This document shows positions 11 through 1,119 of a stretch of 1,119 nt of DNA, piece by piece. The first letter of the stretch is position 1. Every line of letters begins with the position of its first letter. Both the position numbers and the translations under genes were made by a program. The notes under the pieces are model-generated. The model worked only from the letters and a program-made list of their open reading frames with translations, was not told the DNA's origin and did not search any database. This DNA comes from Escherichia coli. Lineage in GTDB: Bacteria > Pseudomonadota > Gammaproteobacteria > Enterobacterales > Enterobacteriaceae. The stretch lies in the NCBI RefSeq assembly GCF_003334315.1, contig NZ_QOWR01000124.1. One strand, 5' to 3'.

Positions 11-1119
11 ATGTCAACCGGATTACGTTTCACACTGGAAGTGGACGGCCTGCCGCCGGATGCTTTTGCGGTGGTTTCCTTTCATCTGAACCAGTCACTC
101 TCTTCGCTCTTTTCCCTCGATCTCTCCCTGGTCAGCCAGCAGTTTCTCTCCCTTGAATTTGCGCAGGTGCTGGACAAAATGGCCTACCTGACGATATGGC
201 AGGGCGATGAAGTACAGCGCCGGGTGAAAGGCGTGGTGACCTGGTTTGAACTCGGGGAGAACGACAAAAACCAGATGCTGTACAGCATGAAGGTGCACCC
301 GCCGCTGTGGCGTGCCGGTCTGCGCCAGAACTTCCGTATCTTCCAGAACGAGGACATCAAAAGCATCCTCGGCACGATGTTGCAGGAAAACGGGGTGACC
401 GAATGGAGTCCGCTGTTCAGCGAGCCGCATCCTTCCCGTGAGTTTTGTGTCCAGTACGGTGAGACTGATTACGATTTCCTGTGCCGGATGGCGGCGGAGG
501 AAGGCATCTTCTTTTATGAGGAGCATGCTTACAAAAGTACCGACCAGAGCCTGGTGCTGTGCGACACAGTCCGCCATCTGCCCGAATCTTTTGAAATCCC
601 ATGGAACCCGAACACCCGTACCGAGGTGAGCACCCTCTGCATCAGCCAGTTCCGCTACAGCGCACAAATCCGCCCTTCTTCCGTGGTGACCAAAGACTAC
701 ACCTTTAAACGCCCCGGCTGGGCCGGACGTTTTGAACAGGAAGGCCAGCACCAGGACTACCAGCGCACGCAGTATGAAGTGTATGACTACCCCGGACGTT
801 TCAAGAGCGCCCACGGGCAGAACTTTGCCCGCTGGCAGATGGACGGCTGGCGAAACAACGCAGAAACCGCGCGGGGAATGGGCCGCTCGCCGGAGATATG
901 GCCGGGACGGCGAATTGTGCTGACGGGGCATCCGCAGGCGAACCTGAACCGGGAATGGCAGGTGGTGGCAAGTGAACTGCACGGCGAACAGCCACAGGCG
1001 GTGCCAGGACGGCAGGGAGCGGGGACGGCGCTGGAGAACCATTTTGCGGTGATCCCGGCAGACAGAACATGGCGACCACAGCCGTTGCTGAAACCGCTGG
1101 TCGACGGCCCGCAGAGCGC
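11..1119 (+). CDS. vgrG: Type VI secretion system spike protein VgrG (TssI), N-terminal portion; 3'-partial, truncated by the window end (last complete codon ends at 1117)
   Basis: Seen in sequence: ATG at 11-13 opens a frame with no stop through 1119 (369 complete codons, hand-translated). Translation starts MSTGLRFTLEVDGLPPDAFAVVSFHLNQSLSSLFSLDLSLVSQQFLSLEFAQVLDKMAYLTIWQGDEVQRRVKGVVTWFELGENDKNQMLYSMKVHPPLWRAGLRQNFRIFQNEDIKSILGTMLQENGVTEWSPLFSEPHPSREFCVQYGETDYDFLCRMAAEEGIFFYEEH... and ends ...NREWQVVASELHGEQPQAVPGRQGAGTALENHFAVIPADRTWRPQPLLKPLVDGPQSA. Established knowledge: I recognise this as the conserved N-terminal region of enterobacterial VgrG, largely the phage gp27-like domain and reaching about the start of the gp5-like OB-fold. 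This is recall, not a database hit. A GGAGG motif lies 5 nt upstream of the ATG. Codon usage is G/C-rich at third positions and TTA/CTA/TCA are absent from codon 30 onward. Confidence 0.92.
   Translation, partial: MSTGLRFTLEVDGLPPDAFAVVSFHLNQSLSSLFSLDLSLVSQQFLSLEFAQVLDKMAYLTIWQGDEVQRRVKGVVTWFELGENDKNQMLYSMKVHPPLWRAGLRQNFRIFQNEDIKSILGTMLQENGVTEWSPLFSEPHPSREFCVQYGETDYDFLCRMAAEEGIFFYEEHAYKSTDQSLVLCDTVRHLPESFEIPWNPNTRTEVSTLCISQFRYSAQIRPSSVVTKDYTFKRPGWAGRFEQEGQHQDYQRTQYEVYDYPGRFKSAHGQNFARWQMDGWRNNAETARGMGRSPEIWPGRRIVLTGHPQANLNREWQVVASELHGEQPQAVPGRQGAGTALENHFAVIPADRTWRPQPLLKPLVDGPQS

Follow-up and report, generated by a model that had tools for sequence, protein, structure and literature searches.

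The 5′ part of vgrG in Escherichia coli: one 1119-base sequence at two loci with different cargo, probably homogenised by gene conversion

Dispersed multi-copy sequences such as rRNA operons, tufA/tufB and IS elements are homogenised by gene conversion, and they break assemblies. A 1119-base stretch of E. coli DNA that holds only the beginning of a vgrG gene raises the question of whether it belongs to the same category. From which vgrG locus does such a piece come, what keeps its copies alike, and why does it end where it does? The whole stretch of 1119 nucleotides that was analysed is called the window hereafter. Coordinates with a sign are counted from the initiation codon, the A of the ATG being 0, so that the window extends from -10 to +1108. 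The features discussed below are collected in Table 1.

The reading frame that starts behind the Shine-Dalgarno motif stays open, with no stop, through the last base of the window. Its 369-aa product reaches 332.8 bits with the NCBIfam family TIGR03361 (T6SS tip protein TssI/VgrG; cut-off 186.35), of which profile positions 1-362 of 513 are covered, i.e. the N-terminal part only. It also scores 238 with TIGR01646 (cut-off 121.8). The Pfam domain Phage_GPD is matched with E = 9.9e-76 over model positions 3-303 of 305, and the RefSeq label in matching genomes is 'type VI secretion system tip protein VgrG'. The full-length proteins that contain the window sequence (100% or one mismatch) have 702 aa and 633 aa. 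Both display the Phage_GPD hub at the same residues; an OB domain (Phage_base_V, 384-450) comes next and then, from residue 467, Gp5_trimer_C, the gp5-type beta-helix. From this domain layout of the full-length paralogs, it follows that the window consists of the ribosome-binding site and the entire gp27-like hub module of an E. coli vgrG, and that it ends in the linker before the OB fold. Scores above the family cut-offs, presence of the hub domain, occurrence of the OB and beta-helix domains in the full-length genes and linkage to T6SS cargo all designate the gene as VgrG/TssI, as far as sequence criteria allow.

An antisense ORF of 315 aa with an ATG start (positions 95-1042, minus strand) was considered and rejected as spurious. 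It has no NCBIfam match at E values up to 0.1, and the matching RefSeq records annotate vgrG alone under the match, with nothing for this ORF. Most likely, the codon composition of the sense strand gave rise to it incidentally. A search with Rfam at gathering thresholds found no RNA family in the window.

Table 1. Features of the window, and distribution of cus-type (C) and yncH-type (y) sequence among vgrG alleles of the yncH locus (coordinates with a sign are relative to the A of the ATG).
Feature	Position in window	Strand	Basis or remark
Shine-Dalgarno GGAGG	1-5	+	sequence; base 1 is the start of the segment identical in yncH- and cus-locus copies
vgrG/tssI 5′ part, codons 1-369, ATG at 11, gene cut off	11-1119	+	translation, NCBIfam TIGR03361, RefSeq annotation
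gp27-like baseplate-hub domain (Pfam Phage_GPD, residues 29-327)	95-991	+	Pfam match
Common polymorphic site, +467 from ATG	478	+	sole yncH-versus-cus difference inside the tract in 13C1065T
Last base of the identical tract (+1108)	1119	+	mismatch lists; +1109 is the first base that differs between converted yncH type and cus type
yncH locus, 13C1065T and AR_0011			C-type +26 to +1091
yncH locus, AS19 (E. coli B)			C-type through +1205
yncH locus, 98234			C-type through about +1292
yncH locus, S21			C, then y, then C, then y
yncH locus, 1802D011			C-type only +617 to about +1292
yncH locus, O157 SS17, 98218, STO_Bone2, UMNK88			mostly y-type

How many copies of this sequence does an E. coli genome carry? 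A megablast search with the window against 5426 complete E. coli genomes retrieved 7819 places, distributed over 3448 of these genomes, and the best place in every matching genome is at least 90% identical. The number of places per matching genome has a median of 2 and a maximum of 4. Among the 18 complete-genome records with a 100% match, 17 have two or three places; a single copy with unambiguous flanks is found only in strain HS30-1. Three chromosomal settings account for the copies examined. At the yncH site (RhsE), the order of genes is yncG-yncH, vgrG (702 aa), RHS element core protein, an ISAs1-family element and pptA. At the cus site, cusS is followed by vgrG (633 aa), a gene for a DcrB-related (DUF1795) protein, an RHS/PAAR toxin gene, ISAs1 and nfrB. 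The third setting, located in UMNK88 by walking to aspV, is the aspV-linked main T6SS cluster, where hcp, vgrG, an RHS core gene, ISAs1 and yafV succeed each other together with tss genes. Two further matches, examined as a possible third locus, turned out to be cross-matches to the cus and yncH loci. Flank-anchored queries placed a vgrG at yncH in 2875 genomes and at cus in 2342. All genomes checked have these two copies in inverted orientation, 0.93-1.07 Mb apart.

These sites can be related to those of enterohaemorrhagic strains. EHEC O157:H7 EDL933 carries vgrG1 (z0707), vgrG2 (z2262) and vgrG3 (z0267), and the three VgrGs of EHEC share at least 90% amino-acid identity, with a conserved N-terminus and a highly divergent C-terminus; up to five copies per genome have been described (PMC7216683). 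Rhs sites have been listed at the K-12 intervals b1455-b1461 (rhsE), b0570-b0569 and b0215-b0221 (PMC3032704, Table 6). The cusS-nfrB, yncH-pptA and aspV-linked sites are the settings of EHEC vgrG1, vgrG2 and vgrG3, respectively. As in UMNK88 and 13C1065T, the EDL933 genes lie in a DUF1795/EagR and Rhs island, in an island upstream of rhsE, and in the main T6SS island after hcp. Unlike the situation in O157, the allele of the window has a cus-type 5′ part, whereas the O157 yncH copy is mostly of the other type and about 95% identical over the anchored query. The organisation of the loci also resembles that of E. coli Rhs elements with an upstream vgr, since here too vgrG is directly 5′ of the RHS core ORF and an ISAs1/H-repeat element lies downstream. 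The original link between vgr and Rhs elements, from which the name 'vgr' comes, was reportedly made by Wang, Zhao and Hill in 1998 (J Bacteriol 180:4102; reference 25 of PMC6363058). Porcine ExPEC PCN033 likewise carries two near-identical vgrG copies in one genome, which shows what a repeat of this kind can mean in practice: its vgrG1 and vgrG2 products are one amino acid apart, and single mutants were hard to obtain by homologous recombination (PMC6363058). The PCN033 proteins differ from the product of the window gene in that they represent another T6SS/VgrG lineage (541 aa, about 25% identical to CFT073 VgrG; PMC6363058).

The initial annotation had stated that the window by itself cannot tell to which vgrG locus or effector cassette it belongs. 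The genomes fully agree with this statement. The exact 1119-base sequence is found at the yncH/RhsE locus in HS30-1, 13C1065T and 2018-01-1CC, and between cusS and nfrB in AH65 and AH62, where the coordinates of the 100% match fall inside cus-type places. AH65 and AH62, which have the perfect copy at cus, are absent from the list of the best 60 matches to the yncH-type query. In UMNK88 and 2013C-4974, the window sequence occurs at the cus locus with one mismatch. The cargo that follows this type of vgrG depends on the site: an RHS core protein is encoded directly 3′ at yncH, a DcrB-related (DUF1795) protein and an RHS toxin at cus. Moreover, 21 records (about 19 strains) figure among the 60 best matches to each of the two locus-anchored queries, with no more than about 0.3% mismatch. 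By this measure, these strains carry near-perfect copies at both the yncH and the cus sites. No complete genome was found in which both copies are identical over all 1119 bases; 13C1065T shows one SNP, at window position 478. Both states of this position were seen in public contigs with yncH and with cus left flanks, so that it is not diagnostic of the locus.

Comparison of the yncH and cus paralogs of UMNK88 and 13C1065T shows that they can be aligned from about -500 to about +1530, and not beyond. The earlier description of vgrG paralogs as near-identical at their 5′ end and divergent at their 3′ end is thereby borne out for these two loci, with an identity that depends on the strain, from 92% in UMNK88 to 1118/1119 in 13C1065T. 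In UMNK88, 88 of the 1119 bases differ between the two copies and the longest exact run is 101 nt; the three copies of this strain (yncH, cus and aspV) are 92.0-94.9% identical to each other over the window. At the protein level, the two allele types share 348 of 369 residues. The picture in 13C1065T, whose yncH copy is 100% identical to the window, is quite distinct. Relative to cus, mismatches are seen at -13, -12 and -11, then only at +467 until +1109; differences resume at +1109, +1118 and +1145 onward and amount to 34 in the next 391 bases. The density of mismatches is thus 1/1119 inside the window versus 34/391 in the adjacent homologous bases (Fisher p = 1e-19). The same comparison of loci gives 88/1119 in UMNK88 versus 1/1119 in 13C1065T (Fisher p = 5e-26). 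On the other side, the upstream leaders of the yncH and cus copies are 59-82% identical.

The leader itself deserves a comment. About 500 nt of non-coding sequence 5′ of vgrG are 75-82% identical between yncH and cus and have no counterpart at the aspV-cluster copy. K-12 retains this leader of about 500 nt despite the loss of vgrG. It may perhaps be a promoter or another regulatory region.

To see how the two types of sequence are distributed, alleles were scored as C (cus type) or y (yncH type) at the 143 sites where the cus copy of UMNK88 is distinct from its yncH copy. The three cus alleles compared are almost wholly of C type. The yncH alleles are block mosaics of C- and y-type sequence, with at least five different patterns and several breakpoints over these sites (Table 1). 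In LR-48, the yncH locus contains a cus-type tract from -396 to +1468, including the cus-specific leader, with yncH-type sequence on both sides. The idea put forward at the outset, that the conserved vgrG 5′ region is a substrate of recombination, finds support in these block mosaics of cus-type sequence at yncH and in the contrast between the tract and its flank in 13C1065T. At least one transfer between loci is required, and the differently bounded tracts suggest several. Some of the yncH breakpoints could also have arisen later, once a single ectopic event had taken place, when converted alleles of yncH recombined with unconverted ones. The cus copy would be the usual donor, to judge from the three cus alleles and the narrow spread of identity at cus rather than from a phylogeny. 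The number of matches in the band of at least 99% identity to the flank-anchored queries was not used to count converted alleles because this band includes partial matches, for instance the K-12 leader remnant (99.8% over 47%).

Altogether, the window is very probably the 5′ 1.1 kb of a dispersed vgrG, taken from a tract homogenised by conversion and present in the source as a repeat-bounded contig. The steps may be envisaged as follows. The paralogs are homologous between about -500 and about +1530; further on, they diverge over the beta-helical and C-terminal part, which, by published inference, would select the cargo. Homologous recombination would transfer sequence of the cus type to the yncH copy by gene conversion, with no crossover, as the mosaic patterns suggest. 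In many strains, conversion would make these two loci identical over the interval -10 to +1108, and a short-read assembler would then end a contig at both branch points of the identical tract.

Other interpretations may be considered. The yncH and cus copies might be nearly identical because the gp27 hub domain is under strong purifying selection, or because they arose by recent duplication, and not through gene conversion. The tract does span a structurally constrained domain, and the two allele types differ only modestly in protein sequence. Still, the same pair of loci shows 88 mismatches in UMNK88 and a single one in 13C1065T, so that constraint is no explanation for the identity. Flanks that, in the same genome, are 9% divergent downstream and 18-41% divergent upstream exclude that the entire block was duplicated recently. 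Alleles made of alternating blocks, as in S21, 1802D011, AS19 and LR-48, also speak against this alternative, which is very unlikely as a whole. A mechanism in which reciprocal crossovers between the inverted copies would be the main outcome of recombination is even harder to credit, to the point of being almost negligible. The arrangement of the loci is suitable, in that a crossover between inverted copies at such a distance would invert the intervening interval of about 1 Mb. Yet a chimeric query made of the cus left flank, the window and 1 kb of yncH-type 3′ end, as expected from a crossover, had no near-perfect match in the 5426 genomes. Ordinary yncH loci match it at 96.3%, and the best match, at 98.3%, is the LR-48 locus, a yncH locus that is normal except for its long conversion tract. 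Since no crossover chimera was found, this result argues for conversion without crossover and not against recombination as such. The yncH mosaics would thus point to non-crossover gene conversion.

It may also be asked whether the window is simply a fragment of a single-copy vgrG, on a contig whose shortness has some other cause, such as low coverage or an adjacent IS element, the match of its ends being a coincidence. HS30-1, with its perfect match at one place only, would be in line with such a reading, as would the IS1, IS3 and IS5 insertions present in or beside the vgrG region in some genomes. This explanation is nevertheless improbable. Both ends of the window match the boundaries of the repeat to the base, the copies differing at -11 and at +1109; nearly all perfect-match records have two or three places; and assemblies that are independent of one another, and that come from different assemblers, share the same terminal base and have left flanks of two kinds.

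The ends of the window have a direct bearing on assembly. With its limits at -10 and +1108, the window is exactly the maximal shared tract, and the source has no more than these 1119 bases, from which a repeat-bounded assembly contig is inferred: most likely, a short-read assembler stopped at each of the two points where the repeat branches, and the source is the contig that resulted. The bubble created by the single SNP at position 478 would normally be merged by the assembler. The identical truncated 369-aa product was retrieved from 28 index blocks of public assemblies (ENA, JGI, Logan), with a longest contig shorter than 2 kb in 21 of them. It is also present in NCBI drafts as 'partial' VgrG, on contigs of 1630 bases at most. 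The 90% cluster of the product comprises 2251 members; 'VgrG, partial [Escherichia coli]' is the name of most of the 15 listed, and contigs of 0.9-1.6 kb carry several of them. Ten contigs, from ten independent assemblies produced with several assemblers, were fetched, and all ten stop at the last base of the window, with 0 bases beyond. Their left flanks are those of yncH in seven cases and of cus in three. It should be kept in mind that the lookup of an exact truncated protein forces contig ends to lie within about 2 bases of +1108, so that the evidence resides in the recurrence of the break and not in the coincidence of the ends. The warning that this region is a hazard for short-read assembly is thus substantiated, both by window ends that are tract ends and by a partial product of 369 aa that recurs on short public contigs.

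In several complete genomes, insertions of the IS1, IS3 or IS5 family lie inside the 1.8-kb region around the vgrG 5′ end and split the matches in two. Such insertions are a second, independent cause of contig breaks at vgrG. In addition, the 'complete' record NZ_CP027430.1 of the E. coli B derivative AS19 is linearised within the rhs gene directly 3′ of vgrG, with rhs annotated as partial; the ends of this assembly may have fallen in the Rhs repeat.

Several loci depart from the intact arrangement. In K-12 derivatives (e.g. NZ_CP011495.1 2778999-2780042), the match to the yncH locus stops about 68 nt before the vgrG start and then runs into an RHS-repeat remnant, which indicates that vgrG and the 5′ part of rhsE have been deleted. 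The K-12 rhsE site thereby differs from the other yncH sites: vgrG is lost and only the leader up to about -68 is kept beside the rhsE remnant. In the aspV cluster of UMNK88 (L011:28825-30966 and L011:9401-12831), an in-frame stop interrupts vgrG within codons 1-369, and the annotation divides the gene into an ORF of 62 aa and a shorter VgrG. Frameshifts affect tssM as well as the RHS gene downstream. The main T6SS thus appears degenerate in UMNK88. At the yncH locus of strain 98218 (L026:2713-5421), the transposase of ISEc1 (ISAs1-like) is directly 3′ of vgrG, without an RHS gene; the cargo has thus been lost while the spike gene is intact. At the cus locus of 13C1065T (L012:38439-41842), the PAAR/RHS toxin gene is frameshifted and truncated, and vgrG and the chaperone gene are intact.

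Part of this picture is not new. That vgrG is a multi-copy gene with a conserved 5′ part and a divergent 3′ part, that its locus is ambiguous and that it endangers assemblies is already known for E. coli. What is added here is the demonstration of two loci that share the window and carry different cargo, base-exact window ends that are those of a conversion tract, a recurrent public breakpoint and a map of the yncH mosaics. In the titles and abstracts of the literature searched, no description was found of vgrG gene conversion in E. coli, including the base-exact tract and the mosaics. Conversion of the vgrG 5′ part is the expected behaviour of a known kind of repeat. Like rRNA operons, tufA/tufB and IS elements, it concerns repeats of 1-2 kb with up to about 99.9% identity, conversion without crossover and contigs that end at repeat boundaries. 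Unlike them, only the 5′ module of vgrG is homogenised, the 3′ cargo module remains specific to the locus, and identity ranges from 92% to 99.9% according to the strain.

The consequences are primarily practical. In draft E. coli assemblies and metagenomes, it is impossible to say which vgrG island or which Rhs toxin cargo goes with such a 1.1-kb piece, and truncated 'partial VgrG' proteins pile up in databases. Scaffolding across the two copies might be ambiguous, given their inverted orientation and a distance of about 1 Mb. Effector typing, gene counts in pangenomes and the design of primers or knockouts for vgrG require locus-specific flanks or long reads.

Finally, the position of the tract invites a broader hypothesis. 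It begins at the ribosome-binding site and ends in the linker that follows the gp27 domain. It is tempting to imagine, as a tentative proposal whose chances fall somewhat short of even, a concerted evolution of the 5′ hub module of vgrG, in which recurrent and directional conversion without crossover, from cus to the RhsE locus, would leave the 3′ cargo modules specific to each locus. The ends of the tract may then have been shaped by selection, all spikes having to fit one baseplate while cargo specificity is kept. The current understanding of VgrG/Rhs systems is unchanged by these observations, whose value is mainly practical; they also provide a small and clear case of modular evolution of the T6SS spike, in which the 5′ hub module is homogenised and the 3′ ends are specific to the locus.
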